Positions 1 through 40,604 of a stretch of 40,604 bases of DNA are shown here, in pieces; position 1 is the stretch's first letter, and every line of letters begins with the position of its first letter. The notes under the pieces are model-generated. The model did no database searches. It had not been told where the DNA came from and was given only the letters and a program-made list of their open reading frames with translations. This DNA comes from a virus (Duplodnaviria; Heunggongvirae; Uroviricota; Caudoviricetes), in IMG/VR virus record IMGVR_UViG_2778261089_000001, positions 1 through 40,604 of that record; one strand, given 5' to 3'. Position numbers and translations under genes: made by a program.

Positions 1-14
1 TTGGTTTGGGAGAA
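1..14. other. Partial hix/gix-type DNA-invertase crossover site (central TT at 1-2, half-site GGTTTGGGAGAA)
   Basis: Window starts with TT GGTTTGGGAGAA, an inverted match to the site at 1816-1841; reading frame across it joins in-frame to the constant fibre segment. Confidence 0.5.
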
Positions 15-503
15 GGCTCTGCATTACCGGTTGGGGTGCCTGTTCCGTGGCCTTCAGCCACTCCGCCAACAGGCTGGCTGAAATGCAACGGTGCCGCTTT
101 TTCTGCTGAAGAATACCCGGAACTGGCAAAGGCTTATCCGACAAATAAATTGCCTGATTTACGTGGTGAGTTTATTCGTGGCTGGGATGACGGGCGTGGT
201 ATTGATGCTGTACGTGCCTTGCTAAGTCTTCAGAATGGAGGAGTGGAATCACACACCCACCAAGGGCAGCTCTTCAGAGTTAGTGATTATCGTACAAAAG
301 AAATACCAGCATCAGAAGTTATGGGAAGAGGATATATTGCAAGCCTGACGCCGGGTGCTGATAGCCCACTTGATTTTGATGATTATTCTGTATCTTCTAA
401 TCCAAATGGATATTTTGTCGGGAATCAGAGAACAACAGCATATGGGATAAATGAAACCCGTCCACGGAATATTGCATTTAACTATATCGTGAGGGCTGCA
501 TAA
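3..503 (+). CDS. Tail fibre C-terminal variable domain (alternative tip, Sv-prime), 5'-partial; not fused to the constant part in this orientation
   Basis: Translation ...PVGVPVPWPS...HTHQ...NIAFNYIVRAA resembles lambda Stf C-terminus; frame open to window edge. Confidence 0.75.
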   Translation, partial: GLGEGSALPVGVPVPWPSATPPTGWLKCNGAAFSAEEYPELAKAYPTNKLPDLRGEFIRGWDDGRGIDAVRALLSLQNGGVESHTHQGQLFRVSDYRTKEIPASEVMGRGYIASLTPGADSPLDFDDYSVSSNPNGYFVGNQRTTAYGINETRPRNIAFNYIVRAA

Positions 504-1105
504 TGGATAACGCTGTATTAAATAGCGAGTTTATTGCTACAAAGGCGGGGAATATTACCGTCTATAACTATGATGGCGAAACACGGGAATATATTTCCAC
601 ATCAACTGAATATCTTGCCGTTGGTGTCGGTATCCCTGCATATTCCTGTTTAGATGCCCCTGGCACATACAAAGCTGGTTATGCAATCTGCCGATCTGTA
701 GATTTTAACTCATGGGAATATGTGCCAGACCATCGCGGTGAAATCGTCTTTAGCACCGAAACAGGAGAATCAAAAGAAATCACAGTTCCGGGTGATTACC
801 CTGATAATACAACCACTATCGCCCCGTTAACGCCATACGATAAATGGGATGGTGAGAAATGGGTGACGGATACCGAAGCACAGCATAGCGCCGCAGTAGA
901 TGCAGCAGAAGCACAGCGCCAGTCACTGATTGATACTGCAATGGCTTCAATCAGTCTGATTCAGCTGAAATTGCAGGCCGGACGTAAACTGACGCAGGCA
1001 GAAACAACCAGCCTTAACACTGTGCTGGATTACATTGACGCGGTGACGGCAACAGATACCAGCACCGCGCCGGATGTCATCTGGCCTGAACTGCCGGAGG
1101 CGTAG
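503..1105 (+). CDS. Tail fibre assembly protein (Tfa, paired with the alternative tip)
   Basis: Lambda Tfa-like; C-terminal DTSTAPDVIWPELPEA motif; TAATG overlap with preceding fibre ORF. Confidence 0.8.
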   Translation: MDNAVLNSEFIATKAGNITVYNYDGETREYISTSTEYLAVGVGIPAYSCLDAPGTYKAGYAICRSVDFNSWEYVPDHRGEIVFSTETGESKEITVPGDYPDNTTTIAPLTPYDKWDGEKWVTDTEAQHSAAVDAAEAQRQSLIDTAMASISLIQLKLQAGRKLTQAETTSLNTVLDYIDAVTATDTSTAPDVIWPELPEA

Positions 1106-1517
1106 GCCATTCAATATCTGGCGCACTGGCGGTATCGACCAGCTCCAGTGCGTCCAGATAATCCAGCCACAAATTATATTGTGCCAGTTCCTCACCTTTC
1201 AGACGACCAATAGCTGCTTTACCAGGCCATTGCTTACCGTTCATGTAATCATTGGCTAAATCTATTCTTTTTTGCTTCTCCACATCAGCAGCGACAATTA
1301 ATTCTTCTCGTGTAGGTGGAGGAATATCACCCCATGCTGGCATGTTATTTAAAGTTATAAGTTGCTTACCTGTAGGGGGAGTGCCGGAAAACTCATAATA
1401 AATGCTGTCACTAACGTTAATGGCATCATGTGGCCAACAATTATTATCAACATAATCAGCCTGCCACTCGATGGCATAAAAACGGGACTCAGATGGACTG
1501 AACACAAAACGATTCAT
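1077..1517 (-). CDS. Tail fibre assembly protein (Tfa, paired with the currently expressed tip)
   Basis: C-terminal DTASAPDIEWPTPP motif typical of Tfa; convergent with the other Tfa, 3' ends overlap. Confidence 0.8.
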   Translation of the reverse strand: MNRFVFSPSESRFYAIEWQADYVDNNCWPHDAINVSDSIYYEFSGTPPTGKQLITLNNMPAWGDIPPPTREELIVAADVEKQKRIDLANDYMNGKQWPGKAAIGRLKGEELAQYNLWLDYLDALELVDTASAPDIEWPTPPAVQAR

Positions 1518-1518
1518 A

Positions 1519-2118
1519 TTAATATCCTATAGCTAAAAACATAGCGTCTGAGGTGTTTGTATTTACAGCAATATTCATCATGACCTGAGCGGTAAATCCT
1601 GTATTGCTTACCCACTCGCATGAGTTAGTTATCTGAACCCATGTTAATTTGGTAGAAAAAACGCCCCAGCAATTAACAGGGAACGGGACAGGGAAAGTCA
1701 CTGGCACAGAATTTACTACACCGACAGTAGTCAAATTTGCGAGCGTCCGGCGAAACACCTGAATCTTAAGACCATCAGGACCTGTAAATAACAAATTATC
1801 GGTGTACTGCCCGCTTGCTCTTAAACCAAGGTTTTCGAGAGCCGTTTTCACCGTGCCATCCGATTTGATATCGCCAAACGGATTCTTGCGGCTTAACAGC
1901 AGCGCACGAAGCGCGGTAAGCAACTGGTCGTGCCGCGCCTTCTCCAGGCTGGCACCGGATGCCTCCACCACGCTGCAGAGTTCTTCCTGCAACATATCAA
2001 AGTAGTCATCATCCAGATCGGTGGCAGGTGTGCCGGTCTGGGGGTTACCACGAGTAAAACCGTTCTTACCCGCGCCGAACTTATCCTTCTGCGCGGTTTT
2101 AGTGTCTATGCGATGCAT
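1519..2118 (-). CDS. Tail fibre protein: constant N-terminal part (residues 1-97) fused to current variable C-terminal part
   Basis: N-terminus [10 protein letters not shown]...[15 protein letters not shown] is a conserved phage fibre N-terminus; crossover site lies inside the ORF at codon 97. Confidence 0.7.
1816..1841. other. hix/gix-type DNA-invertase crossover site (TGCTCTTAAACC AA GGTTTTCGAGAG)
   Basis: Close match to the Hin hixL site TTCTTGAAAACCAAGGTTTTTGATAA, with central AA dinucleotide. Confidence 0.6.
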
Positions 2119-2121
2119 GGA

Positions 2122-2706
2122 TTACTCCGGATATTTAAAAATTACGTAGGTATGCGACGGGCAGAGTTTGTTAAGCACACACTCGACAACGGTGTCGCCC
2201 CATATACGCAGTGCGGAATCACAGGGATCGCCACATGTCATCCAGGTGGTGTTGGTGGCGGCTGGCATGTTGATCTGCCAGTAATACCGCCATTCCGGCG
2301 CATTCACCGCGTCAGTACAGGCCGATGAGCAGGTGAAGGTGCTTTTGTCGTATCGCGTGATGGTGGCATCTGGCCTGCCCAGGGCAGCAAGCTGTGCAAG
2401 ATAAAAATCCTCGTTGATGCCGCCCGCCAGGTTAACCTTCGCATCCAGCCGTTGCTGACGCTGGCGAAGAGTCTGCGTCCCTGCCGGAATACATTCATCC
2501 GGCAGGCCGCACAGACGCTCCCAGCGGTTTATCAGTTCGGTGGTGGTGCGCGGATCCAGCTCCTGCATCAGGGCATCCGCACGCTGATGAACACGGGTTA
2601 ATGACGGTGCCGCACCGGCAATCGCCGGATCGCTGGCTGACCACGCCGGACCGGGCGGCAACAGTGCTGACAACAGACGGATGTAATCATCGTTTGTCAC
2701 GTCCAT
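2122..2706 (-). CDS. Mu gp48-like tail protein (DUF2313/YmfQ-like)
   Basis: Position between baseplate J-like gene and tail fibre; family-level recognition of the translation. Confidence 0.6.
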
Positions 2707-3755
2707 GAAATCGCCCCCAGAACCGCCAGTTCATTTTTCGCAATGGTGATATTGTCCGCCGGTGCAAGCAACTGATGGCTGTATTCCCCGTTCGCACCGG
2801 AAATCGCTTCACTGATACGTGACACCTTCAGTTCTCCCTGCGGATAACCATCACGCAGCAGGAACGAACGCAACTCCGCGGTGATGGCAGCCCGTATTTC
2901 CGGTGTGTCCGGCGTCACACGGATATGAAAATCCACCGTATGTGCCACCGGCCTGAACACATACAAATCAGAGCCTGCCACCGGGGCCAGTGGCCCGATA
3001 TGTTGTCTTGCCGCCGTTTCCGTTGATTCTTCCGGAATGGGATTAATCAGGTCACTGCTGGCAATCATCACACCGACAGTCCCCGTTCCCATCCAGTGTC
3101 GGTATGTCCATGCGCGGGTAATGCCAGGCACTTCTTTAGCCCAGACGACATAGTCCCCGTCAGCCCCGCCCTGCGGCGTCCAGTAATACCGCTCAATGAC
3201 GCGGGCGCGCCACGTTTCCAGCTCTTCAGTATCAAATCCGCCTGTCAGGGTGTCAGCCACACCGGAAGACGGCAGACCATTCACCGGCGTGACCAGGATT
3301 AATGCCGTACCGTCGTCAGCGTTACCGACCGCACCTGCACTTGAGCAGGCGATCGGCACGCGCAGGACACCACCGGAGCTGATTGCATCGTCAGTTGTCG
3401 TGTACTGCACCAGGTCATCGCGCTGAATAACACTCCCGGCAGTCACCTTCAGGCCATCGCTGACACCTTCCCAGCGCATATACCCGCTGGCAACCGTGGC
3501 TCCCTTGCGCGGACACCGTTTCATCGCAGCATGTCGCGCCAGCCAGGACTCATCGCACAGGTCAGGCAGCATATTCATTGCCAGATAATCGATGTAACCG
3601 TAGACCGTATGCAGCGCCGCCGCATACACCTTTGCCCGCACGTCTTCATCCATGCGCCGGAGCGTGTCGCTGACGTCCAGCCTGGCGAATAAATCGTTAC
3701 GGAGCATACTGATATTTTCTGCCAGCGTCGGGCGCTGAAATTCACTGTCCGCCAT
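2697..3755 (-). CDS. Baseplate J-like protein (Mu gp47-like)
   Basis: 352 aa; sequence character and synteny in Mu-like baseplate cluster. Confidence 0.7.
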
Positions 3756-4170
3756 GCGTTATCGCACTCCACAGATCATCAAAAGAAATCATTACTGGTC
3801 CATCACGACGCCAGAGGGTGATACTGTTACCCAGCTCATTAATCCCGGTGCGGCGGATATCCAGATCAATACGGAACACCACGCCGTCATCAGTCATCCA
3901 TTGCAGGCATTCGCGGATATATCCCCTTACCGTCTGCACCAGCTGATTGGTCAGTTTGCTGCGCTGAAGCAACCACAGTCGGGAGCCGTAACGGTCATTC
4001 TGTACCGCAGGCCAGGTATCCCCCCACCATCCCATCGGGACGTCGGCATTGTCATCAGGCTCCGCCCGCCGCCAGGTGAACAGGGAAATCACCACGGCGC
4101 GGGTCAGCGGATCCAGCGGTGCGCTGGCGCAGGTGCGTTTACCGTTCACCGTCAGCCACAGTTCCATCAT
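3742..4170 (-). CDS. Mu gp46-like baseplate protein
   Basis: 142 aa ORF between baseplate V-like and J-like genes. Confidence 0.6.
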   Translation of the reverse strand: MMELWLTVNGKRTCASAPLDPLTRAVVISLFTWRRAEPDDNADVPMGWWGDTWPAVQNDRYGSRLWLLQRSKLTNQLVQTVRGYIRECLQWMTDDGVVFRIDLDIRRTGINELGNSITLWRRDGPVMISFDDLWSAITHGGQ

Positions 4171-21860: not shown

Positions 21861-22382
21861 ATGATGAACAAATTAGCACGCTTATTATTAACAGCCAGCT
21901 CAATTGCACCTGTTTGCGCAACTCTATTTTTTATTGGATATGTAAAAGATACGGTTTGGCTGATGCAATATAGCTTATGCGTTGGCATAGCAAGTTGGTT
22001 ATTAGCAATAGGCCTGATTCAATATGCTGAGAAACAACTTGAACCTCTGACAAAAAATATTAGTTCAGTTTCTCCCGCTAACAAAGAAGTAACTAATTAT
22101 TTCTTAAGCTATTTATTCCCTCTCCTAGGAACAGATTCTATTGCTGAAAATAAAGCATATGCGTTATTCTTTTATTTATCATTGTTATTTTACATCAGCT
22201 TTTCCGAGAACTATAACTTTAACCCAGTATTGTCACTTATCGGTTATAAATTTTACGAAGCTGAAGATGACACCGGCGTAGGTTTTGTATTGATTTCTAA
22301 ATCAGTTATTACTGATATTAAAGATATCAAATTTACAGTTATTCAATTAACAGACTACACATTTCTACATGTTAAAGGATAA
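21861..22382 (+). CDS. Four-TM membrane protein (candidate KwaA-like component)
   Basis: 173 aa with four hydrophobic helices; AAAGGA RBS; AT-rich; opposite strand to flanking phage genes. Confidence 0.6.
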   Translation: MMNKLARLLLTASSIAPVCATLFFIGYVKDTVWLMQYSLCVGIASWLLAIGLIQYAEKQLEPLTKNISSVSPANKEVTNYFLSYLFPLLGTDSIAENKAYALFFYLSLLFYISFSENYNFNPVLSLIGYKFYEAEDDTGVGFVLISKSVITDIKDIKFTVIQLTDYTFLHVKG

Positions 22383-22387
22383 TAACC

Positions 22388-23272
22388 ATGGCACTTTTTG
22401 CAGTAATAGATAATACAATTGCAACGAGAATTGTTAGAGTCGAACTTGATGCAACAGCAAGTACTTCTGTTACGGCCATTTTCCAACAACAGCGTCAATA
22501 TTTTGAAAGTCATCATAACAATATGATACCATTCTATGCCGGTTATACACCAAAACATAGTGAGTGTTTTGAAATACAAAACTTTACTGATTCTGCACGC
22601 CTGATTGACGCAGTCAATAGGCCTACCGCCGTGCCTATCTGGGATCCTAGCCAAATTGATATTGGTTATATTAAAGCATTATTTGTTGGTGTTGACGCGC
22701 CAGCAAACCCCAATATTATTGCACTACAAACTTTCAACAAAAAACAAATCTTAGATACCTCAAAATCATTCTTTGGAAAGCTTTTTGCAAGCAAAACTAC
22801 CTTTAGTAAAGCTAATAGCATCGGTTTTAATGTTGATGATAAACTAGTTGCAATAATTATCAATGATACAATACGATTTAAGAGTTTCTTTAATCTAAGA
22901 AGCATTTTTGACATGTCGTCCTATTTTTCTGCTGCTACTGACCAAGAACTTAATGCATTTAGTCAACTTAGTGTATTTTCTACTCCCCAAGGTTTTGATC
23001 TAAAATCCGTTGCAGATACAGTGATAAGAAATAAAGTAACACTAATAAATCAGACTGGGATGCTAACACCCCAAAATATGTCAAAGTTTAAATCCGAAGC
23101 TGCTAAAGTTAATTTCCCCTTACAAACCATAATAGTTGGCGGTGTTGAGAAAATTGTCATGCCTTCATCAAAAAAAGAAATAAAAGCCCTTCTTGACTTT
23201 CTTGAGGAAGACATTTGGGTTTCTGGAATAAGTGGAAGACGCTTTAAATCGAATTCAAAGCGCCCAATATAA
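22388..23272 (+). CDS. Soluble 294-aa protein co-transcribed with the TM protein (candidate KwaB/DUF4868-like)
   Basis: Starts 5 bp after upstream stop with AAAGGA RBS; AT-rich; no recognised catalytic motif. Confidence 0.6.
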   Translation: MALFAVIDNTIATRIVRVELDATASTSVTAIFQQQRQYFESHHNNMIPFYAGYTPKHSECFEIQNFTDSARLIDAVNRPTAVPIWDPSQIDIGYIKALFVGVDAPANPNIIALQTFNKKQILDTSKSFFGKLFASKTTFSKANSIGFNVDDKLVAIIINDTIRFKSFFNLRSIFDMSSYFSAATDQELNAFSQLSVFSTPQGFDLKSVADTVIRNKVTLINQTGMLTPQNMSKFKSEAAKVNFPLQTIIVGGVEKIVMPSSKKEIKALLDFLEEDIWVSGISGRRFKSNSKRPI

Positions 23273-31159: not shown

Positions 31160-31283
31160 GGAGAAACTAACCGCCCCTACGGGGGCATTTATGGAAATGT
31201 AATTAACTCAATAATCGCCGGACGGTGAGGGCTTCCTTTTACCCGAGTTCAGCGCGGTGCAGCGCATATACGTGGAGAACAAA

Positions 31284-31820
31284 ATGTCATTTATTAAAAC
31301 TTTTTCCGGGAAGCATTTCTATTATGACAGGATAAATAAAAACGACATCGTTATTAACGATATCGCGGTTTCCCTTTCAAATATCTGTCGCTTTGCAGGA
31401 CATCTTTCACACTTCTACAGTGTCGCCCAACATGCGGTGCTTTGCAGCCAGTTGGTGCCGCAGGAATTTGCTTTTGAAGCTTTAATGCATGATGCAACAG
31501 AAGCGTATTGCCAGGACATCCCCGCACCACTGAAACGACTTCTTCCTGACTATAAACGGATGGAAGAAAAAATAGACGCCGTAATCCGTGAGAAATACGG
31601 GTTACCTCCTGTTATGAGCACGCCAGTGAAATATGCCGATCTCATCATGCTGGCAACCGAACGCCGCGATCTCGGGCTTGATGATGGCTCTTTCTGGCCT
31701 GTGCTGGAAGGTATCCCGGCAACAGAGATGTTCAACGTGATTCCACTGGCTCCAGGCCATGCCTACGGGATGTTTATGGAACGCTTTAACGAATTATCGG
31801 AGTTACGCAAATGCGCATGA
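31284..31820 (+). CDS. HD-domain phosphohydrolase-like protein
   Basis: H...HD motif (HFYSVAQHAV...MHDATEAY); start taken at MSFIKT. Confidence 0.5.
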   Translation: MSFIKTFSGKHFYYDRINKNDIVINDIAVSLSNICRFAGHLSHFYSVAQHAVLCSQLVPQEFAFEALMHDATEAYCQDIPAPLKRLLPDYKRMEEKIDAVIREKYGLPPVMSTPVKYADLIMLATERRDLGLDDGSFWPVLEGIPATEMFNVIPLAPGHAYGMFMERFNELSELRKCA

Positions 31821-32173
31821 ATGTTTTCGAAATGGAAGGGTTTCTTCGCGGGAAATGTGTACCGCGAGATCTGAAAGTGAACGAAACAAATGCTGAGTAC
31901 CTGGTACGTAAATTCGACGCGCTTGAAGCTAAATGTGCGGCACTGGAAAGCAAAATAATACCAGTGTCAGCTGAACTGCCACCAGCAAATGAAAGTGTTC
32001 TGTTATTTGATGCTAACGGAGAAGGCTGGCTGATTGGCTGGCGTTCTCTCTGGTACACCTGGGGACAAAAAGAAACCGGAGAATGGCAGTGGACATTTCA
32101 GGTCGGGGACCTTGAAAACGTCAATATCACTCACTGGGCAGTAATACCGAAAGCACCGGAGACTAAGAAATGA
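31811..32173 (+). CDS. DUF551-like phage protein (Trp-rich C-terminus)
   Basis: 120 aa; C-terminal GWLIGWRSLWYTWG...WQW. Confidence 0.45.
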   Translation: MRMNVFEMEGFLRGKCVPRDLKVNETNAEYLVRKFDALEAKCAALESKIIPVSAELPPANESVLLFDANGEGWLIGWRSLWYTWGQKETGEWQWTFQVGDLENVNITHWAVIPKAPETKK

Positions 32174-32385
32174 GCGTGATAAAAACTCATACAGGAATTG
32201 TTATCACCCGAGACGGTGAAAAGCGGATGAAATTACATTCCACTGAAACGTCCTGGGTTGCCGGACGTTGTGAATCCTATGACAAAAAGACTGGTTACCG
32301 TTGGGGTGCACCTAACATGCGTCGCCGTCTGCTACTGGACAGCATCAGGCCAATAAAACAGGTAGCAACCAGGGAACAAAATTAA
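32170..32385 (+). CDS. Hypothetical small protein
   Basis: 71-aa ORF translationally coupled to DUF551-like gene. Confidence 0.35.
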   Translation: MSVIKTHTGIVITRDGEKRMKLHSTETSWVAGRCESYDKKTGYRWGAPNMRRRLLLDSIRPIKQVATREQN

Positions 32386-32432
32386 TTATCAGGACTGGAA
32401 TTTGATATTACTGCCCGTGTGCAGCGGGCTAA

Positions 32433-32651
32433 GTGGAGAAACATATGCTGAACCTCGATTGTGTTCCAATCTCAACTTATTGCAAAGAAACTGGCGAAAC
32501 TCCTGAAGCAATAAACAAACGTGTACAGCGCGGTGTTTGGCGTGAAGGTGTTCAGGTTTTAAAGGTTGAAGGCGTTAAGGAGAGGTGGATTGACCTTAGT
32601 GAGGTTGCAAAATGGGCCAGACAAAACTGCTCAAACTACCGCGCGGCGTAA
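32433..32651 (+). CDS. xis: Excisionase-like protein
   Basis: 72-aa basic protein immediately upstream of and overlapping integrase. Confidence 0.6.
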   Translation: MEKHMLNLDCVPISTYCKETGETPEAINKRVQRGVWREGVQVLKVEGVKERWIDLSEVAKWARQNCSNYRAA

Positions 32652-33778
32652 CAATCAGGAAACACCGCCAGGGCGAAACGATCAATATAACTTTCACCTA
32701 CAAAGGAGTTAAATGTCGTGAGCCTCTTTCCAATCTGGAAGTAACACCAAAGAACATTAAATACGCCGAGCGTACACTCGGCGAAATCCATAATAAGATC
32801 GAAAAGGGAACATTCATTTATGCAGAATATTTTCCCCGTTCTGCTCGTTTGAAAATTTTTGGTAATGCTGCTGCAGGCAAAACGGTAAAGATGTACCTGG
32901 ACGAATATCTTGAAATCTGCGAAACAAGAAAACTTTCACCCTCTACGATTGGTGGCTATAAAAAATGCCGTAGGGCGTTAGCCTCACTTCACATTTGCCC
33001 TGCAAGTGAATTAACACCAGCAACCCTGAAAGCGTGGATTCAAAGCCAGAAAACAACCTTAAAAACCATTCGCAACCAGTTATCTTTCCTGCGGTCAGCA
33101 CTTGATGAAGCCGTGACCGATGGGGTACTTCAAATTAACCCCGTATCGTTAGTAACAGCTTCGCGCTACCAAAGTGATAAGTCAGAAGCAGAAAGCAGCT
33201 ATGTGGTTGATCCGCTATCACCAGCAGAAGTTGATGCATTACTAGCAGCAGCCGGAAACAAACAATGGGAAAATCTGTTCCGGTTCGCTATACATACAGG
33301 CCTGCGTAGTTCTGAACTATGTGCCCTTCGATGGCGTGATATCGACTTTGTTGGAAAAACTGCCCATGTCCAGAGCGCAAGTGTTGTCGGTGTTATCAAA
33401 GGAACAAAGACAAAAGCCGGTACTCGTAAAGTTGAACTGACAGAAGAGGCTATGTTGGCGCTGATAAATCAGAAGCCATTTACATTCATGAAGGATGCTA
33501 CTGTCTTTGAAGATCCAAAGACCAATAAGCCTTGGGCAAGTGCTGATGCAATCAGGAAAAAAGCATGGGTGCCAACATTGCGAAAAGCAGGTATTCGTTA
33601 CAGAAACCCATATCAAACCAGGCATACATTCGCCACCAGCCATATCAGTCGGGGTGCAAATTTGTTTTGGCTTGCGGCTCAAATGGGTCATAAAGGGCCA
33701 GAAATGCTTTTCAGACACTATGGCTCATATTTGAAGGAATATGATGGACAAGCAAGCCTGAAGAAGATAAAAATATAA
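32612..33778 (+). CDS. int: Tyrosine integrase (phage integrase family)
   Basis: 388 aa; arm-binding-type N-terminus, C-terminal catalytic region with R...HxxR...Y pattern. Confidence 0.9.
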   Translation: MGQTKLLKLPRGVTIRKHRQGETINITFTYKGVKCREPLSNLEVTPKNIKYAERTLGEIHNKIEKGTFIYAEYFPRSARLKIFGNAAAGKTVKMYLDEYLEICETRKLSPSTIGGYKKCRRALASLHICPASELTPATLKAWIQSQKTTLKTIRNQLSFLRSALDEAVTDGVLQINPVSLVTASRYQSDKSEAESSYVVDPLSPAEVDALLAAAGNKQWENLFRFAIHTGLRSSELCALRWRDIDFVGKTAHVQSASVVGVIKGTKTKAGTRKVELTEEAMLALINQKPFTFMKDATVFEDPKTNKPWASADAIRKKAWVPTLRKAGIRYRNPYQTRHTFATSHISRGANLFWLAAQMGHKGPEMLFRHYGSYLKEYDGQASLKKIKI

Positions 33779-33835
33779 CCCATGTCTGAACTGTTGGCCA
33801 CCATTTGTGGCCATTTCATTGAACAAGGTACACAC

Positions 33836-35569
33836 ATGGCAAATCAAATAACTAAACTAAAAAAAATAAACGTTGTAAAATTCCGGGGGCTAAAAAATAT
33901 AAATATAGAATTTGGAACTCGCCTAACTGTTATTTGTGGGAAAAATGGCACATCTAAATCAACAATTCTTGGTATTATCGCCCAGATTTTCAGTTTTACA
34001 AAAGACTTATCTAAGAATCCTGAGATTGATTTAACACAATATAAGACATTAACTAATGGCAACTTCAAGTCAGCTTTCAGTGAGCATTTTAGACTCTCAG
34101 AACAATTTGATACTGCTGGTTCAATGGACGTCAAGATTAGTGTCTATGATGGAGCATTTAACAAACATCTTGAAAAACTAACATTGGGTCTATACAGTTC
34201 CAGCGACAGGGATAAATCAAGACCAATAGTCAGGGGTAATGATTCTATCCCGGGGAAAAACCAAAGTAGAAACGTTACCCATCCTGTTATTTTTTTAAGC
34301 TTAGCCAGGCTTCTCCCTATTACCCTTCGTACTGATTACTCAACAAGAGATGTTGAGTATATCAAGAAAAATGCTGATGATATAAGAATAATGAGTAATC
34401 AACTCTTATTAAAAAACAATGGATGTTCAGTAACAGCCACAAAAGGGATTATTGATTCAATGGTTGTACATGGTGATAATTATGACTACCAATCAGTTTC
34501 TGTTGGTGAAGATAATGTAGGACAATTAATCCAAGCAATATTTTCGTTTAAAAGGCTGAAAGAACTGTATGATGACTATCATGGAGGTATTTTATTAATT
34601 GATGAAGCGGATGCAGGTCTCTTCCCTGCGGCTCAGTTAGAATTAATTAACATCCTAACCAAAGCTGCTAAAAAATATGATTTGCAAATAATCATGACAT
34701 CTCATTCCCCACTAATAATTGAAGATGTTTTCAATCGTTCCAAACAAGACCCCAAAGGCTTCAAAACAATCTACCTAACAGATACTTATGGTGATATAAA
34801 AACAAAAGATAACTTATCATGGGCTGATATAAATGCGGATTTACATGTTGAGACGGTAAAAATCGATGATAAGATTAGTCTTCCAAAAGCTAACGTTTAT
34901 TTTGAAGATAAAGAAGGCTTTGATTTTTTCAAACAATTGATAACTGACAGAAGAATAAAAAAAATATTAAATCCATTAGGAAATATAAATATTAGCTGCT
35001 CTGCCATTTTGGATTTAATGGCAAGAAAAATCCCTGAATTTACAATTAAAAGTCTGGTGGTCTTAGACGGCGATGTTGCTCTAGATAACAGTGATAATGC
35101 AAAAAAAGCAAAAAAAGAGAAAAGCTTATGCTTACTTCCAAGCATCCTACCTCCAGACCAAATGATTTTCGAATTTTTATATAATTTACCTCCTGATGAT
35201 GTATATTGGAACAATACAAATAGGTTCACAAAAGCTGTATTTTTGAGAATAGCTAAAGATATAATCACATCATTAAAGATAGGTAACTACCCTATTAACT
35301 TACAAAACTTAATAGATAATTATAGAAAAGAAAATCAAAACCATGGTGGAACGGTTAGAAAACTTTTTAAAGATTTTGCACACACGCCTCAATTTCAGGC
35401 TCTAGTCAAAGGACGAGTTAAAAATAACCCATATCGATATTGGGTCAAGAAAAATCCTGAGCAATCTGATCGTTTCAGGAATGAACTAATAAAGAGCCTT
35501 AAAGTTATTATGACAAGTGGACATGGTGTTGATTCTGCTACCATCTCATCATATCTTTCAGATAACTAA
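33836..35569 (+). CDS. OLD-family-like ABC ATPase (Walker A GKNGTSKST, Walker B LLIDEADAG) with C-terminal Toprim-like region
   Basis: P-loop, D-loop and SHSP motifs; C-terminal EDKEG and VVLDGD acidic motifs; AT-rich; ORF track start at 33782. Confidence 0.65.
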   Translation: MANQITKLKKINVVKFRGLKNINIEFGTRLTVICGKNGTSKSTILGIIAQIFSFTKDLSKNPEIDLTQYKTLTNGNFKSAFSEHFRLSEQFDTAGSMDVKISVYDGAFNKHLEKLTLGLYSSSDRDKSRPIVRGNDSIPGKNQSRNVTHPVIFLSLARLLPITLRTDYSTRDVEYIKKNADDIRIMSNQLLLKNNGCSVTATKGIIDSMVVHGDNYDYQSVSVGEDNVGQLIQAIFSFKRLKELYDDYHGGILLIDEADAGLFPAAQLELINILTKAAKKYDLQIIMTSHSPLIIEDVFNRSKQDPKGFKTIYLTDTYGDIKTKDNLSWADINADLHVETVKIDDKISLPKANVYFEDKEGFDFFKQLITDRRIKKILNPLGNINISCSAILDLMARKIPEFTIKSLVVLDGDVALDNSDNAKKAKKEKSLCLLPSILPPDQMIFEFLYNLPPDDVYWNNTNRFTKAVFLRIAKDIITSLKIGNYPINLQNLIDNYRKENQNHGGTVRKLFKDFAHTPQFQALVKGRVKNNPYRYWVKKNPEQSDRFRNELIKSLKVIMTSGHGVDSATISSYLSDN

Positions 35570-35649
35570 TTGATTAAAAAGGGTTTTATGTGATGTCCAT
35601 AAAGCCCTTTTTTTTGATATACTCTAGATCTGACATTTAGAGGTATCAT

Positions 35650-36549
35650 ATGCGTTTTAACACCCCACTTCGCTATCCTGGCGGTAAAGGCAAGCTTGCA
35701 AATTTCATACTTCGGATTATTGAAGAAAATAATCTTTCGCCTATACATTATGCCGAACCATATGCTGGAGGGGCTGGCTTAGCATTGAAACTTTTACATT
35801 TAAATGCAGCTGAAAAAATCATCCTTAATGATATTAATATTTCTGTTTATGCTTTTTGGTACAGTGTATTAAATCATGCAGATCAATTATGTTCTTTAAT
35901 TGAAAGAACTGAAGTTACAATGGATGAATGGTTTAAGCAGAAAGATATAATTAATAATCCGAAAGACCATGATCTTTTAACAATTGGTTTCTCAACCTTT
36001 TTTCTCAATAGAACAAATCGTTCTGGAATATTAAAAGGTGGAGTAATTGGCGGTAAAAATCAAGAAGGAAAATGGAAGCTTGACGCTCGCTATAATAAGA
36101 GTGATTTGATTTCTCGAATCCATAAAATATCAGAAAATCGTCACAGAATAGATTTATATAACATGGATGCAATTGATTTCATTGAAAAAATAGTCATTCA
36201 ATTGCCACAAAACTCATTAACATATTTGGATCCACCTTATTACATAAAAGGTAAAGGTTTATATATCAACCATTATGATCATGATGATCATGTTAGGGTT
36301 GCAAAAGTCGTACAGAATAATATTAAAACGCCTTGGATTGTTTCTTACGATAACACTCCTGAGATCCAAGCTATGTATAAGACATCATCATTAGTATATG
36401 GAATAAACTACAGTGCTCAAGATCGGTACAAAGGATCTGAGGTAATGTTCTTCAGTGAACGGTTGAAAATCTTTAAAACAGATGATCCAACTAAGGTAAA
36501 AGCACCTGTATTTAAAAGAGGATATGTTGACGACCACATCCAGACATAA
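35650..36549 (+). CDS. D12-class N6-adenine DNA methyltransferase (Dam-like)
   Basis: Motifs RYPGGK, EPYAGGAG and catalytic DPPY; AT-rich. Confidence 0.85.
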   Translation: MRFNTPLRYPGGKGKLANFILRIIEENNLSPIHYAEPYAGGAGLALKLLHLNAAEKIILNDINISVYAFWYSVLNHADQLCSLIERTEVTMDEWFKQKDIINNPKDHDLLTIGFSTFFLNRTNRSGILKGGVIGGKNQEGKWKLDARYNKSDLISRIHKISENRHRIDLYNMDAIDFIEKIVIQLPQNSLTYLDPPYYIKGKGLYINHYDHDDHVRVAKVVQNNIKTPWIVSYDNTPEIQAMYKTSSLVYGINYSAQDRYKGSEVMFFSERLKIFKTDDPTKVKAPVFKRGYVDDHIQT

Positions 36550-36621
36550 AAGGAGCCGCAAAAGATCCGCAGAATAAAATAGTTAGTATTAATCGTTTTA
36601 TTTCAGCTAATTATAAAAATA

Positions 36622-36654
36622 CGGACTCGGGTTCAACTCCCGCCAGCTCCACCA
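36622..36654 (+). other. ssrA: tmRNA (ssrA) 3'-end fragment = attachment-site core at prophage boundary
   Basis: CGGACTCGGGTTCAACTCCCGCCAGCTCCACCA matches the ssrA 3' acceptor/T-arm; no full ssrA upstream (MTase gene occupies that space). Confidence 0.8.
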
Positions 36655-36701
36655 AAATTCTCCATCGGTGATTACCAGAGTCATCCGATGAAGTCCTAAG
36701 A

Positions 36702-36733
36702 GCCCGCACGGCGCAAGCCCTGCGGGCTTTTTT
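36702..36733 (+). terminator. Rho-independent terminator (native ssrA downstream terminator)
   Basis: GCCCGCA...TGCGGGC stem followed by TTTTTTG. Confidence 0.65.
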
Positions 36734-36787
36734 GTGCCCTCAATTTGTCCCGCGAAGTCCGAAGAAAACTAATTAAATCCGATCCTT

Positions 36788-36841
36788 TTAGGCACCTTGT
36801 TAGGCACCTCATAAAGCTTTATTGTTTTTTGAGGTGCCTAA
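36788..36841. repeat. Three copies of TTAGGCACC (two direct, one inverted) upstream of integrase
   Basis: Copies at 36788-36796, 36800-36808 and inverted at 36833-36841. Confidence 0.6.
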
Positions 36842-36859
36842 AACTATGGAAACCCGGCA

Positions 36860-38101
36860 ATGGCAAGACAAACCAAACCTCTATCCGTTAAAGAAATAGA
36901 ATCAGCCAAACCCAAGGAGGCGGACTACGTTCTCTATGATGGCGATGGCCTTGAGCTACTCATTAAATCCAGCGGGAGTAAAATCTGGCAGTTTCGCTAC
37001 ATTCGCCCTGTCACCAAGAAACGAGCAAAGAAGAGCATAGGCTCCTACCCGTCAGTTACCCTTGCCGATGCCAGAAACTACCGTGCAGAGTCCCGCTCAC
37101 TACTGGCTAAACAGATCGATCCGCAGGAACATCAGCAAGAACAATTGCGCAGTTCGCTGGAAGCCAAAACCAACACTTTCCAACTCGTAGCTGAACGTTG
37201 GTGGAATGTGAAGAAAGCCAGTGTGACAGAGGACTATGCGGAAGATATCTGGCGCTCTCTTGAAAGAGACGTCTTTCCTGCGATTGGCGACGTTAGCGTT
37301 ACAGATATTAAAGCTCATACACTGGTTCAGGCCGTACAACCGGTTCAGGCCAGAGGAGCACTGGAAACTGTTCGTCGCCTGTGCCAACGTATTAATGAGG
37401 TCATGATCTATGCCCAGAACACAGGGCTGATTGATGCTGTTCCCAGCGTTAATATCGGTAAAGCCTTCGAGAAGCCTCAGAAAAAGAACATGCCCAGCAT
37501 TCGACCGGATCAGCTACCTCAGTTAATGCAGACGATGCGAACAGCCAGCATTAGCCTTTCCACACGCTGCCTGTTCATGTGGCAACTTCTTACTATTACC
37601 CGCCCTGCCGAAGCGGCTGAAGCTCTCTGGGAAGAGGTAGACATAGAAGCGCGAGAGTGGAAGATTCCTGCAGCACGCATGAAAATGAACCGCGACCATA
37701 CTGTTCCATTGTCAGATGAAGCAATTGCGATACTAGAGATGATGAAGCCGTTAAGTGGAAATCGAGAATTTATCTTTCCCAGCCGCATCAAGCCAAACCA
37801 GCCGATGAACAGTCAGACCGTAAACGCATCGCTAAAACGCGCAGGTTTTGGTGGGGTGCTCGTTTCACACGGCCTGCGATCTATCGCCAGTACAGCCCTT
37901 AATGAGCAGGGATTTCCACCTGATGTTATTGAGGCTGCACTTGCTCATGTGGATAAGAATGAGGTTCGTCGTGCGTATAACCGTAGTGATTATCTTGAGC
38001 AGCGACGGCCTATGATGCAGTGGTGGGCTGATTTTGTGATGGCTGCAGATCACGGTAGTATGATTGAAGGAGGGATAAAGGCAATGCGGTTAGTTGGATG
38101 A
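36860..38101 (+). CDS. intA: Tyrosine integrase, P4/CP4-57 IntA-like
   Basis: 413 aa; N-terminus MARQTKPLS...YDGDGLELLIKSSGSKIWQFRY typical of P4-type integrases. Confidence 0.85.
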   Translation: MARQTKPLSVKEIESAKPKEADYVLYDGDGLELLIKSSGSKIWQFRYIRPVTKKRAKKSIGSYPSVTLADARNYRAESRSLLAKQIDPQEHQQEQLRSSLEAKTNTFQLVAERWWNVKKASVTEDYAEDIWRSLERDVFPAIGDVSVTDIKAHTLVQAVQPVQARGALETVRRLCQRINEVMIYAQNTGLIDAVPSVNIGKAFEKPQKKNMPSIRPDQLPQLMQTMRTASISLSTRCLFMWQLLTITRPAEAAEALWEEVDIEAREWKIPAARMKMNRDHTVPLSDEAIAILEMMKPLSGNREFIFPSRIKPNQPMNSQTVNASLKRAGFGGVLVSHGLRSIASTALNEQGFPPDVIEAALAHVDKNEVRRAYNRSDYLEQRRPMMQWWADFVMAADHGSMIEGGIKAMRLVG

Positions 38102-38239: not shown

Positions 38240-40543
38240 CTATTTTAAATCAGCCTTTGCGGCTCGAATATCTGCGTTTTTTGCTGAGTATTCCCATTCG
38301 TCAGCGATTCTAAATAGCATTGCAGAAGTACGGACGCAGTGGGGCATTGAATTTGCCCATTCTCGGTACTGCTCAGCTAATATCCTTTCTTGGTTTCCAC
38401 CTTCGTAACGCATACGAGCAAATACCCCCCTTTTATTGTACCTACCAATTTGTATACCTTGCTCTAACTCATCAGAAGATAATATTTCAATGATGTGCCG
38501 AATTGCTTCATGTGGCCAGGAATTATCTACTGAGCTATTAGGGGCATGTGCCAGAATTTTTCCTATTACATGATCAGTGATTTCTTGGCGATGATGCAAT
38601 TTTGCTAAATGGCGTACATTCTCACACCAATCTTCAAGTTTATCTTGATCAATTTCATTGTCTATCTGCCCTGGTAGTATTCGTAATTTTTCAAGTAATC
38701 TGTATATAGAAGTAGCTCTTTTAACTTCCAACTCCGATGGTTCTGTTTGTTCATCTTCGTCACTACGATATACAATACATATTGCTTCTATAAAAACCTC
38801 TGGCTTTTTCATCATTAGACGATGCAGGATAAGTGGCTCATCGCTATCCGGAAAACAAGGCAAGTAGGTCATTTCTTTAAATGCCAAATCTGTTTCAGAA
38901 ACATCGTTACGTTGTTTGAGTTCATCAAAAACTTTTTTTACATAGTACGATAGCATTGTATCAAATTGGATATCCTGGCTATTTATTTCTTTAACGACTA
39001 TATCTAGAAGATATAAAAGTGTTGTAGATGGAATCTCAGAAAGGCGTTGATTTGCTGATATAATAGCAGCAAGACCCCGGCCCCTTTCTATATATTTATC
39101 CATAAGAACAAATAAATCCGAAGTTTTACCCATCATTGCAATGGGTTGTTTTTGCAACCAATATTTTTCGTTGATGTTATCTTCAAACCCTTCAATAATG
39201 CTCCATATCTCTTGTGAGTCTCTTAACGATGCTAAGATTTTCCCAGCCCTATCAGGGGTAATTTTAAACTGTTTAAAATACACTTTTATTTTATTAAGCC
39301 ATTCAGCACCAAAGCATTCAACACCATATTGCATTAACAACCCACAAACTTCATCAATATTTTTTTTGTTGTTAATAAGCATTACAAACAAATCATTTAA
39401 TTTTTCTTCATCCAACGAGAGTGCTGATATATGCCTTGCTGCAATAAAAACATTATTAACTTGTTGAAAAAGGTCTTTCACCCCAGACAAACCTAAAGTA
39501 AAGTATATTTCCCTAAGTTTTTCACTTCGCATTTCTTCGACAGAAGAAAAAATTCCGCCAGCATTTTCAATTGACTCTTCAATATCAGAATCCCAATCAT
39601 TGAAAATCCATAAACTGGCTCTAACCATGTCAATTGGTTTATAATTATCAAGTATTTTCGCTATTTTTTCCATAGACTCAAATTTAAATGCCCAGTTCGC
39701 ATCTGAATATTTTTTATGGCGAGAATACTCATGACGCAAAGCCTCCCATACGATGAACTGATCCTCTTCAGTTTGTTGAGAAAGGCAAAGTTCAAGATGA
39801 GAAAGTGTTTCATCTATTGCATTCTCAGGGAATGAGCTTAAATGAGAGATTAGGATTTCCCATCTTGTTGGGAGTATACCTGCAAGTTTAATTGCTTCTT
39901 GGATAATAAAGATTTGCCCCTCCCAAACAACGCCCCACGTTAGTTTTTCTACATCTTTATCCGACTCTCTGAACTTCATTTTTTGGTTTTGATCAGAGGT
40001 ATCATGGGAGCGAGGAAGGAGATTTTGTAACAAACTCCACCCAATACTAGGAACAATAGTGATAATTTTTTTTATAATTGCATTTCTAACTTTTACTGGT
40101 GCCCATGTATTAGGAGACCATGCCAGAAAAATGGTTCTTAAACTATTAAGAGGGCGATCTGAGTAAGTTCCTCCGGGATCTATTACAGCGAGTTTTGCAA
40201 GACAGATTGCAGCGCGTAATAGATATGTTTGTTCCCAAGCCAAGGCTTCCAATGCCCATTTTAATCCATGATAATGACTTCGAGGAGTTAACAGCCCTTT
40301 ATCTTCATTGAATATTGGAGCAATCATTTCCCCATTGCCCTTAAGCAATTGCTCAAGGGCATCAAGGAAAGGGCCAGGGGCAGCTTCTGCCAGCAGCGGA
40401 AGTTGATCTCGCAAACTAACAAATAGTCGATGGTCGTTAGCAAGTCCCGGAATACTCTGAACTATTTTGTTAACAAAATCTTGGGGTGTCATACCAGTAA
40501 CCCGGAATTCGGCCTGTTCATGTAATATGATCTTACCCAGCAA
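38240..40543 (-). CDS. Large hypothetical protein (767 aa), AT-rich island cargo
   Basis: Long uninterrupted ORF in low-GC DNA; helix-rich composition, no recognised motif. Confidence 0.6.
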   Translation of the reverse strand: MLGKIILHEQAEFRVTGMTPQDFVNKIVQSIPGLANDHRLFVSLRDQLPLLAEAAPGPFLDALEQLLKGNGEMIAPIFNEDKGLLTPRSHYHGLKWALEALAWEQTYLLRAAICLAKLAVIDPGGTYSDRPLNSLRTIFLAWSPNTWAPVKVRNAIIKKIITIVPSIGWSLLQNLLPRSHDTSDQNQKMKFRESDKDVEKLTWGVVWEGQIFIIQEAIKLAGILPTRWEILISHLSSFPENAIDETLSHLELCLSQQTEEDQFIVWEALRHEYSRHKKYSDANWAFKFESMEKIAKILDNYKPIDMVRASLWIFNDWDSDIEESIENAGGIFSSVEEMRSEKLREIYFTLGLSGVKDLFQQVNNVFIAARHISALSLDEEKLNDLFVMLINNKKNIDEVCGLLMQYGVECFGAEWLNKIKVYFKQFKITPDRAGKILASLRDSQEIWSIIEGFEDNINEKYWLQKQPIAMMGKTSDLFVLMDKYIERGRGLAAIISANQRLSEIPSTTLLYLLDIVVKEINSQDIQFDTMLSYYVKKVFDELKQRNDVSETDLAFKEMTYLPCFPDSDEPLILHRLMMKKPEVFIEAICIVYRSDEDEQTEPSELEVKRATSIYRLLEKLRILPGQIDNEIDQDKLEDWCENVRHLAKLHHRQEITDHVIGKILAHAPNSSVDNSWPHEAIRHIIEILSSDELEQGIQIGRYNKRGVFARMRYEGGNQERILAEQYREWANSMPHCVRTSAMLFRIADEWEYSAKNADIRAAKADLK

Positions 40544-40604
40544 TAGTGGACACGCGGCTAAGTGAGTAAACTCTCAGTCAGAGGTGACTCACATGACAAA
40601 AACA

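Follow-up and report, generated by a model that had tools for sequence, protein, structure and literature searches.

In the DNA analysed here (the window: 40.6 kb, or 40,604 nucleotides), positions 1–2118 almost certainly constitute the host-range switch of an apparently complete prophage of the e14/SfV type. Positions 1–1829 are the invertible P segment, itself well known, of an Escherichia coli prophage of the e14/SfV type with a Mu-type baseplate; the system has already been described as the P segment and Pin of prophage e14. As a textbook phage host-range switch, of which identical copies with named pinE and tfaE genes are already present in RefSeq genomes, the locus adds little beyond correct annotation.

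The prophage combines HK97-type head genes with a Mu-type contractile tail and baseplate. It has a full complement of head, tail and lysis genes, looks complete and is probably capable of making particles. A tRNA scan of the window found no tRNA genes, and hence there is no tRNA attachment site there. E. coli H1827/12 is 100 % identical over window positions 1–2700 and 99.97 % identical over 1–31170, diverging rightward. Strain GN4143 is 99.9 % identical to the right 7.6 kb of the window and carries a different, lambda-type prophage at the place expected for the cassette. The features of the switch and of the right window edge are collected in Table 1.

Table 1. Features of the invertible fibre cassette, its flanks and the right edge of the window
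Feature	Position	Strand	Basis or remark
Invertible segment (P-segment homologue)	1–1829	.	Core TT (1–2) to core AA (1828–1829); sister-isolate inversion
Core TT and inner half GGTTTGGGAGAA of the crossover site next to the invertase	1–14	+	Outer half TTTTCATAAACG lies beyond the window
Silent alternative tip, 166 codons, StfE-like, tail-collar	3–503	+	Pfam Collar, E 5e-16
TfaE-like tail-fibre assembly chaperone of the silent tip	503–1105	+	Pfam Caudo_TAP, E 5e-32; tfaE in RefSeq loci
Tail-fibre assembly chaperone of the expressed tip	1077–1517	-	Pfam Caudo_TAP, E 1e-26
C-terminal variable part of the fibre expressed in this orientation (codons 98–199 plus stop), gp53-like tip	1519–1827	-	Pfam Gp53-like_C, E 4e-7
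Complete 26-bp crossover site TGCTCTTAAACC AA GGTTTTCGAGAG	1816–1841	.	Core AA at 1828–1829; fibre codons 93–101
Constant N-terminal fibre part (codons 1–96 plus first base of codon 97)	1830–2118	-	Outside the invertible segment
Mu gp48/YmfQ-type baseplate gene	2122–2706	-	Pfam Phage_Mu_Gp48, E 2e-26; annotated ymfQ
First 77 nt of an IS3 copy, right window edge	40528–40604	+	77-nt stretch; IS3-family transposase annotated at the equivalent place in GN4143

The crossover sites

An earlier note on this DNA, made from the sequence alone, had placed a 26-bp site resembling those of Hin and Gin at 1816–1841, inside the fibre ORF at codon 97 (Leu CTT), and this reading holds when the sequence is checked. 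The fibre ORF runs from 2118 to 1519 on the minus strand and encodes 199 aa; its codon 97 is CTT at 1830–1828, so that the AA/TT core corresponds to bases 2 and 3 of that codon. Site significance was assessed by a consensus scan with shuffled controls, which replaced a generic repeat search. Across the 40.6 kb, 1816–1841 is the sole place that fits TCNNAAACCAAGGTTTNNGA with two or fewer mismatches, against 0.01 such places expected by chance.

The half-site that opens the window, reading TT GGTTTGGGAGAA over positions 1–14, lies in the opposite orientation to the site at 1816–1841, in line with the claim that the window begins with a matching inverted half-site; only half of that site is inside the window. 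The full left site, TTTTCATAAACG TT GGTTTGGGAGAA, is seen only elsewhere, at 3989–4014 of a 100 %-identical locus (L001), where the outer half-site that had been expected upstream is indeed present. From identical and related loci we infer that the source strain carries this outer half as well as the invertase gene. Positions 1–16 have the same letters as the published e14 inverted repeat TTGGTTTGGGAGAAGG (PMC12529663). All 16 of the inspected loci, K-12 e14 included, have exactly two sites, 1827 nt apart and with opposite cores. As in the Din family, the sites are imperfect palindromes of about 26 bp, built from 12-bp half-sites around a 2-bp core, inverted with respect to each other and with the same asymmetric core.

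Judged purely as an inverted repeat, 1–17/1813–1829 is weak, with arms that are 76 % complementary over 17 nt. Of the 117 pairs of inverted repeats reported for 2.6 kb, it comes tenth when sorted by arm length. The significance of the site pair thus derives from the consensus, the position and the comparative data rather than from the strength of the repeat.

One fibre gene with two alternative 3′ ends

The fibre start codon lies 3 nt past the stop of the gp48/YmfQ gene, and in the window orientation the silent tip is without a constant N-terminal part. When the reverse complement of 1830–2118 is joined to window positions 1–503, the result is an uninterrupted ORF of 263 aa that reads ...ALENLGLGEGSALP... 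through the junction, so the proposal that the frame from position 3 continues the fibre, and that inversion would fuse it in frame to the tip at 3–503, is confirmed by computation. Both fusions, of 199 aa and 263 aa, are therefore open in frame. The TTG at position 6 counts as a ‘start’ only through the way ORFs were listed, the frame being open up to the window edge.

Each tip is followed by its own assembly gene, and the presence of Caudo_TAP domains in both downstream ORFs agrees with the earlier description of two convergent fibre-tip/Tfa pairs. The Tfa ORFs (503–1105, plus strand; 1077–1517, minus strand) converge with a 29-nt overlap, and the similarity between the two chaperones is confined to the C-terminal 66 residues of the 1077–1517 product, at 36 % identity. 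The two tips themselves are unrelated in sequence, as had been stated, and in domain (Collar versus Gp53-like_C), the best local BLASTP match between them spanning 16 residues with an E-value of 0.011; on this basis they likely engage different receptors. The arrangement matches that of an e14-type P segment, with the crossover lying within the fibre frame and the constant part able to join either tip, each with its Tfa. For annotation, this means one fibre gene with two alternative 3′ ends and not a fibre accompanied by a separate small ‘tail fiber protein’.

The adjacent invertase

The earlier note also predicted that a serine invertase gene would adjoin the window on the left. In E. coli H1827/12, which is identical over this region, the 184-aa pinE has its 5′ side ending 66 bp left of window position 1, and the invertase gene is likewise adjacent in 10 of 10 contigs with an identical fibre protein, which bears the prediction out. 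The pinE product, a Gin-like serine invertase, has Resolvase and HTH_7 domains and matches the Mu Gin structures 3uj3 and 4m6f over its full length (E ~1e-95). In the identical locus, therefore, a serine recombinase of the Din-family kind (about 180–190 aa, with a resolvase domain and a C-terminal HTH) stands beside the segment, its gene lying outside the window. A promoter and terminator scan of the L001 cassette gave six promoter-like sites, against 4.1 expected, an excess too small to point to a promoter for pinE or for the silent tip.

Inversion in nature and its proposed mechanism

Both orientations occur in public genomes. Thirteen complete E. coli genomes carry the flipped, in-frame 263-aa fusion contiguously, and six have the window orientation. 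Additionally, the sister isolates Z1323PEC0011 and Z1323PEC0013 differ over 8374 nt in one respect only, the segment corresponding to window positions 1–1829 being exactly inverted; the inverted length is 1815–1829 nt, the flanks are identical and the ends fall inside TTGGTTT/AAACCAA. Isolates ZH48 and ZH49 show the same flip within a P2-like prophage, so that among related genomes inversion between the two cores is documented by two sister pairs and by both junction types. Experimentally, the homologous e14 segment inverts in cultures through the action of PinE and PinQ (PMC4272514, PMC12529663), the latter being another prophage's Pin-type invertase that acts in trans on the e14 sites (PMC12529663).

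By analogy with Hin and Gin, the pinE invertase would bind the two 26-bp sites and make 2-bp staggered cuts at the AA/TT cores, after which, as is typical of the family, one pair of subunits would rotate by 180 degrees, presumably with the help of Fis bound to an enhancer. In the Gin/Hin family, recombination involves a pair of 26-bp sites together with an enhancer bound by Fis, and the Fis requirement is known for Hin and Gin (PMC3798978). Such an enhancer normally lies in the 5′ part of the invertase gene. The constant 5′ part of the fibre (codons 1–96), from which the fibre is read, lies outside the 1.83-kb segment, directly after the baseplate genes, and is thus presumably co-transcribed with them. 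Inside the segment are the two 3′ parts to choose from, which face opposite ways, and behind each stands the Tfa gene that belongs to it. Inversion would then exchange the gp53-like tip and its Tfa for the tail-collar tip and TfaE, turning the 199-aa fibre into a 263-aa fibre. If the two tips recognize different receptors, as their dissimilarity suggests, a lysogen population would release particles of two presumed receptor specificities.

The left window edge as an assembly break

The left edge of the window is a recurrent assembly break. A truncated product starting at window base 3 occurs in 589 blocks of public assemblies, and nine of 10 independent public contigs that were fetched start at the same base, with TTGGTTTGGG..., while in the tenth a scaffold N gap falls at precisely this point; the suspicion that the edge marks an assembly break at the crossover is thereby substantiated. 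The crossover is the first base common to both orientations, or to copies joined to different flanks, so that an assembly graph branches at this base and the window starts there. At the right edge, the last 77 nt are the beginning of an IS3 copy, which identifies the window as a contig assembled from short reads. The contig continues unbroken through the right-hand crossover site, so a minority orientation, if present, is either rare or was resolved by the assembler on the right side only. In practice, a short-read E. coli contig that ends at TTGGTTTGGGAGAAGG bears the mark of an invertible segment, probably from a culture of mixed orientation, and not of a biological boundary.

Alternative readings

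The weakness of the arms as a bare repeat invites the reading that the match between 1–17 and 1813–1829 is a chance inverted repeat, and the tip/Tfa pairs a duplicated and diverged module in which nothing inverts. This is scarcely credible, given that the consensus match is unique in the window, that the segments exactly inverted in the sister isolates have their ends in these very cores, that the frame is preserved in both orientations, that the invertase gene is always adjacent and that the homologous e14 segment inverts experimentally (PMC4272514, PMC12529663); it is refuted by the flipped fusion in 13 complete genomes together with the sister-isolate inversion. On another reading, this strain's cassette keeps its sites and both tips but no longer flips, for instance through loss or inactivity of the invertase, and the window edge is a repeat-induced break caused by a second copy of the tip beside a different flank elsewhere in the genome, not a sign of mixed orientations in the culture. 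The invertase lies outside the window, the E. coli genomes matching the region have a median of two and up to eight matching places, the same segment occurs in P2-like prophages (99.8–99.9 % identity), fused precisely at the core to different constant parts, and the graph would branch at this same base if there were another, expressed copy; the intact contig at the right-hand site fits as well. Against this, every one of the 10 contigs that share the identical fibre has an intact invertase gene at its side, the Pin-type invertases of other prophages can act in trans, as PinQ does on e14 (PMC12529663), and this very pair of sites has inverted between sister isolates. Moreover, the junction of such a second copy would itself be a recombination product at the same core. 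A frozen cassette is therefore unlikely, and a functional switch is the preferred reading.

It has also to be considered that the main role of the switch is defence of the host, exerted by the invertase-proximal chimeric ORF (a start codon from the pin flank followed by the tip that has been switched away) as a counterpart of StfE2. In K-12, StfE2 of e14 is reported to confer resistance to phage T2, with T2 adsorption blocked (PMC12529663), which sets a precedent. Here, the ATG of the pin-side flank is in frame with whichever tip adjoins it, giving an ORF at 3961–4503 of L001 that is annotated ‘tail fiber protein’, and the flipped isolate is annotated at that place with a 116-aa ‘gp53-like domain-containing protein’. 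However, the prophage looks complete and is probably capable of making particles, the classical host-range role suffices, and the tip of the chimera (gp53-like) differs from the K-12 tip. Defence as the principal role thus strikes us as improbable, and it would add to the inversion mechanism rather than replace it; were it true, the different tip could mean action against different phages. Pin-type invertases could furthermore swap whole tip cassettes among e14-type, P2-type and other phages at the AA/TT core, and the same segment is found joined at the core base to at least five different constant parts. Taken together, a 116-aa gp53-like chimera serving as an StfE2-like, receptor-masking anti-phage protein and co-resident Pin invertases swapping cassettes make a picture to which we would assign little weight. 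Defence and cassette exchange both have precedents in the literature. Since flipping of the e14 segment alters T2 sensitivity according to a recent report, natural tip variants such as this one are candidates for testing.

Comparison with known systems

The switch follows the same logic as the G segment of Mu with Gin and the C segment of P1 with Cin, in which a constant 5′ part lies outside the segment, two 3′ parts with their assembly genes lie within it and the invertase gene is adjacent. The likeness to Mu extends to the upstream baseplate genes, which are of the Mu type (gp44–gp48), but the rest of the phage is lambdoid/HK97-like and not transposable. The segment measures 1.8 kb, compared with about 3 kb for the G segment of Mu, and the fibre is short (199 or 263 aa). 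The mechanism proposed here is modelled on Hin/hix of Salmonella (PMC3798978), and hixL served for the comparison of sites. Hin/hix likewise has 26-bp sites, a 2-bp core and half-sites of the GGTTT type and employs an invertase of the same family, but Hin flips a promoter, whereas the present system swaps coding sequence.

Among E. coli prophages, those of the P2-like type carry the same 1.83-kb segment at 99.8–99.9 % identity with an invertase of their own alongside, and it flips there, too. In these cassettes, the constant part is a long N-terminus of the P2 H type, the fibres measure 452 or 516 aa, and GGTATGTGAGAA forms the outer half-site. For invertible cassettes of this kind and the multi-segment, shufflon-like loci of EPEC, phase variation has been published (PMC4272514). 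Escherichia phage SKA5, whose 37.6-kb genome was deposited as complete, is a live relative with the same invertase-tip-Tfa-Tfa-fibre-YmfQ-Mup47 layout but other tips (60 % query coverage, 92.7 % identity). In the Shigella phages SfV and SfI, the constant fibre part and ymfQ are 95–96 % identical to those here; both phages match from window position 1811 onward only, the segment itself being without a match in them. SfIV is grouped with SfV, SfI and SKA5 as a close system.

The nearest described counterpart is the K-12 prophage e14, whose P segment and Pin the earlier note did not name. There, the genes stand in the same order and orientation (ymfQ-stfP-tfaP-tfaE-stfE-pinE), the crossover falls at the same position in the fibre gene, the sites have the same 1827-nt spacing and the outer half-sites are identical, including the right outer half GGTTTTCGAGAG. 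DNA identity outside the variable tips is 90–96 %, namely 93 % for pinE and the start of the collar tip, 90 % for the tfaE region and 96 % for the constant part (in K-12 the 5′ part of stfP) plus ymfQ. Window 1233–1822, comprising the expressed tip and the larger part of its Tfa, shows no DNA similarity to e14, and neither does the C-terminal half of the collar tip (207–452). The inner half of the right site reads GGTTTAAGAGCA here versus GGTTTGGGAGAA in K-12, and for this reason the arms are less alike (76 %) than the perfect 16-nt arms of K-12; it is exactly this less-alike pair of sites that the sister-isolate inversions use. Finally, e14 is a 15-kb remnant, whereas the prophage described here has all its head, tail and lysis genes.

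Crossover sites and cassette genes

The sequence features from which the earlier note described the cassette (window 1-2118) are correct in every checkable detail, as the sites, frames and ORFs check out, with only half of the left site lying inside the window. The right site reads TGCTCTTAAACC AA GGTTTTCGAGAG on the + strand at 1816-1841, an imperfect palindrome of 12+2+12 architecture, and is the sole match in 40.6 kb to the consensus TCNNAAACCAAGGTTTNNGA with ≤2 mismatches, where shuffles predict 0.01. In the fibre gene, its AA core (1828-1829) supplies the second and third bases of codon 97 (CTT, Leu). At its left edge the window starts with TT GGTTTGGGAGAA, i.e. the core plus one half-site in the orientation opposite to the right site, and joining the reverse complement of 1830-2118 in silico to window 1-503 yields an open 263-aa frame. 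Taken simply as an inverted repeat, the pair does not stand out (17 nt, 76% complementary, 10th by arm length among 117 pairs reported). Four ORFs lie within 1-2118; the tail-fibre assembly (Tfa) genes are convergent, with a 29-nt overlap, and their products are alike only over the C-terminal 66 residues (36% identity), while the collar and gp53-like tips are unrelated in sequence. Beyond the Baseplate_J gene come equivalents of the Mu-type baseplate genes gp46, gp45 and gp44.

Features of the cassette and window, with DNA similarity to K-12 e14
Feature	Window position	Strand	Match or type	Similarity to e14
Collar tip ORF, open to window edge	frame of base 3, stop 501-503	+	Pfam Collar, E 5e-16	
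Tfa gene after collar tip	503-1105	+	Caudo_TAP	
Second Tfa gene	1517-1077	-	Caudo_TAP	
Fibre gene, 199 aa, upstream of second Tfa gene	2118-1519	-	Gp53-like_C tip	
gp48/YmfQ, directly upstream of fibre gene	2122-2706		Mu-type baseplate	
Baseplate_J gene, next upstream	2697-3755			
Prophage integrase	32612-33778			
pinE + first 206 nt of collar tip				93%
tfaE region				90%
Constant fibre part + ymfQ				96%
Receptor-binding part	207-452			none
Receptor-binding part	1233-1822			none

The invertase and the left flank

An invertase gene had been predicted just left of the window, and it is there in the locus of Escherichia coli H1827/12, which matches window 1-2700 at 100% identity and window 1-31170 at 99.97%. 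In H1827/12, the outer half of the left site is TTTTCATAAACG, and a - strand gene annotated pinE (184 aa) begins 66 bp to the left of the window; its product carries Resolvase and HTH_7 domains and matches the Mu Gin crystal-structure sequences 3uj3 and 4m6f over residues 1-181 (E about 1e-95). Likewise, a Resolvase/HTH_7 gene of 184 or 187 aa adjoins the silent tip in all ten of the longest public contigs encoding the identical 199-aa fibre.

The cargo past the invertase gene varies between loci. In H1827/12 (L001 1-3319, left of the window) it comprises a LEM-3-like GIY-YIG protein, a Dcm-type methylase and a type II restriction endonuclease; other contigs (including L011 6346-7577) have either an HNH (McrA-like) gene and then an icd remnant, which is also the K-12 e14 arrangement, or a DinI gene plus an integrase. 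RefSeq treats the switched-off tip as a gene of its own, i.e. a 180-aa 'tail fiber protein' at L001 3961-4503 (reaching window 1-503) and a 116-aa 'gp53-like domain-containing protein' at L005 5808-6158 in a flipped isolate. The start codon used is an ATG in the flank on the invertase side, which is in frame with the adjoining tip in either orientation. These products are the counterparts of e14 StfE and of the StfE2 chimera, for which a block of T2 adsorption has been reported (PMC12529663).

Inversion in natural isolates

Among 5426 complete E. coli genomes, 13 carry the flipped fusion gene contiguously (96.8-99.1% identity) and six carry the fibre in the window form. The dog isolates Z1323PEC0011 and Z1323PEC0013, which come from the same study, differ across 8374 nt in a single block; it measures 1815-1829 nt, is exactly reverse-complemented between the two, equals window 1-1829 and ends within the shared cores TTGGTTT and AAACCAA. 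In the pig isolates ZH48 and ZH49, the 1.83-kb segment, which shares 99.8% identity with the window, is flipped within a P2-like prophage, where the fibre alternates between lengths of 452 and 516 aa. These sister-isolate pairs, together with both forms in complete genomes, document inversion at exactly these cores in nature, in isolates other than the window's source culture.

As the fibre gene starts 3 nt after the ymfQ stop, the constant fibre part is presumably read from outside the segment, within the late tail operon, and the gene layout suggests that only the tip and Tfa pointing the same way would be expressed. By analogy with the Hin/Gin mechanism (PMC3798978), invertase dimers would bind both 26-bp sites and assemble into a synapse with a Fis-bound enhancer, after which 2-bp staggered cuts at the cores would be followed by 180-degree subunit rotation. 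Because the tips are unrelated in sequence and domain, they likely confer different host ranges.

Many genome matches to the window end at 1829-1834, and at the AA core the fetched contigs connect the segment with five or more different outer half-sites and constant parts, Mu-type and P2 H-type ones among them. The 1.83-kb segment occurs at 99.8-99.9% identity in P2-like and other prophages (L002, L021-L029, L030 and L031); the constant parts that adjoin it at the AA core are unrelated, and the differing outer half-sites include GGTATGTGAGAA, GGTTTGTGGTAA and GGTTTTTAAGAA. Such cassettes have long been held to pass between phage types at crossover sites, and the varied joins fit that view.

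Origin of the contig edges

The earlier note's suspicion that the window starts at an assembly break gained support. Base 1 is the first base common to entry from the pin flank (...AAACG) and from the constant part (...AAACC), so a graph holding both kinds of read branches exactly there. Nine of ten fetched contigs share this first base (TTGGTTTGGGAGAAGG...), and in the remaining one a scaffold N gap lies there; as four of the nine extend into an invertase gene and five into a fibre constant part, a one-sided break like the window's is usual. The truncated product starting at base 3 is recorded in 589 blocks of public assemblies, 563 of which have a longest contig <2 kb, suggesting that the segment was there assembled alone. 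At the other end, window 40528-40604 is the left end of an IS3 copy, entered for exactly 77 nt and 12 nt into its transposase gene; such a remnant is what a short-read de Bruijn assembler would leave at a repeat and points to k = 77. The break may stem from a culture of mixed orientation or from another copy of the tip elsewhere in the genome.

Other genes in the window

A two-gene Kiwa anti-phage system (padloc: KwaA, 173 aa, E 2e-83; KwaB, 294 aa, E 2e-150) occupies window 21861-23272 (+), with the prophage lysis genes on one side and the Q antiterminator gene on the other. Immediately past the prophage integrase, a small islet (33782-38101, +) contains a 595-aa AAA ATPase with PtuA/GajA/AriA-like matches, a Dam-type methylase that hits PD-Lambda-5_B (E 7e-124) and, at 36860-38101, a second tyrosine integrase. 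This content suggests defence genes that integrated in tandem with the prophage. An AT-rich ORF with a TTG start (38240-40543, -, 767 aa) had no Pfam or PADLOC match, and its DNA occurs in GN4143 at 99.9% identity, annotated as two hypothetical proteins.

Relationship to e14 and other phages

The reading as an invertible host-range cassette is thus supported; the system is the Pin/P-segment switch, already known within the Gin/Hin/Cin/Pin family and seen inverted between sister isolates. The tip combination is already present in annotated RefSeq genomes and is not new; the finding carries little weight as discovery and serves as an annotation note and an account of the contig edge. K-12 e14 has the same gene order (ymfQ, stfP, tfaP, tfaE, stfE, pinE), identical outer half-sites and the same site spacing of 1827 nt, and window 1-16 matches its published P-segment inverted repeat, TTGGTTTGGGAGAAGG, letter for letter (PMC12529663). 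The e14 segment, first described by Plasterk and van de Putte (1985) as cited in this literature, inverts in clonal K-12 cultures, catalysed by PinE and, in trans, by PinQ (PMC4272514, PMC12529663). The window element is a full-length relative, with integrase, immunity, replication, lysis, HK97-type head and Mu-type tail genes. Its identity to the H1827/12 prophage, the closest complete relative, stays at 99.97% up to about 31.17 kb, is 96.6% over window 31173-33745 and is lost past 33745, making the integrase end mosaic. Phage SKA5 is likewise full-length and has the same cassette layout, and SfV and SfI have the constant fibre part in common with the window.
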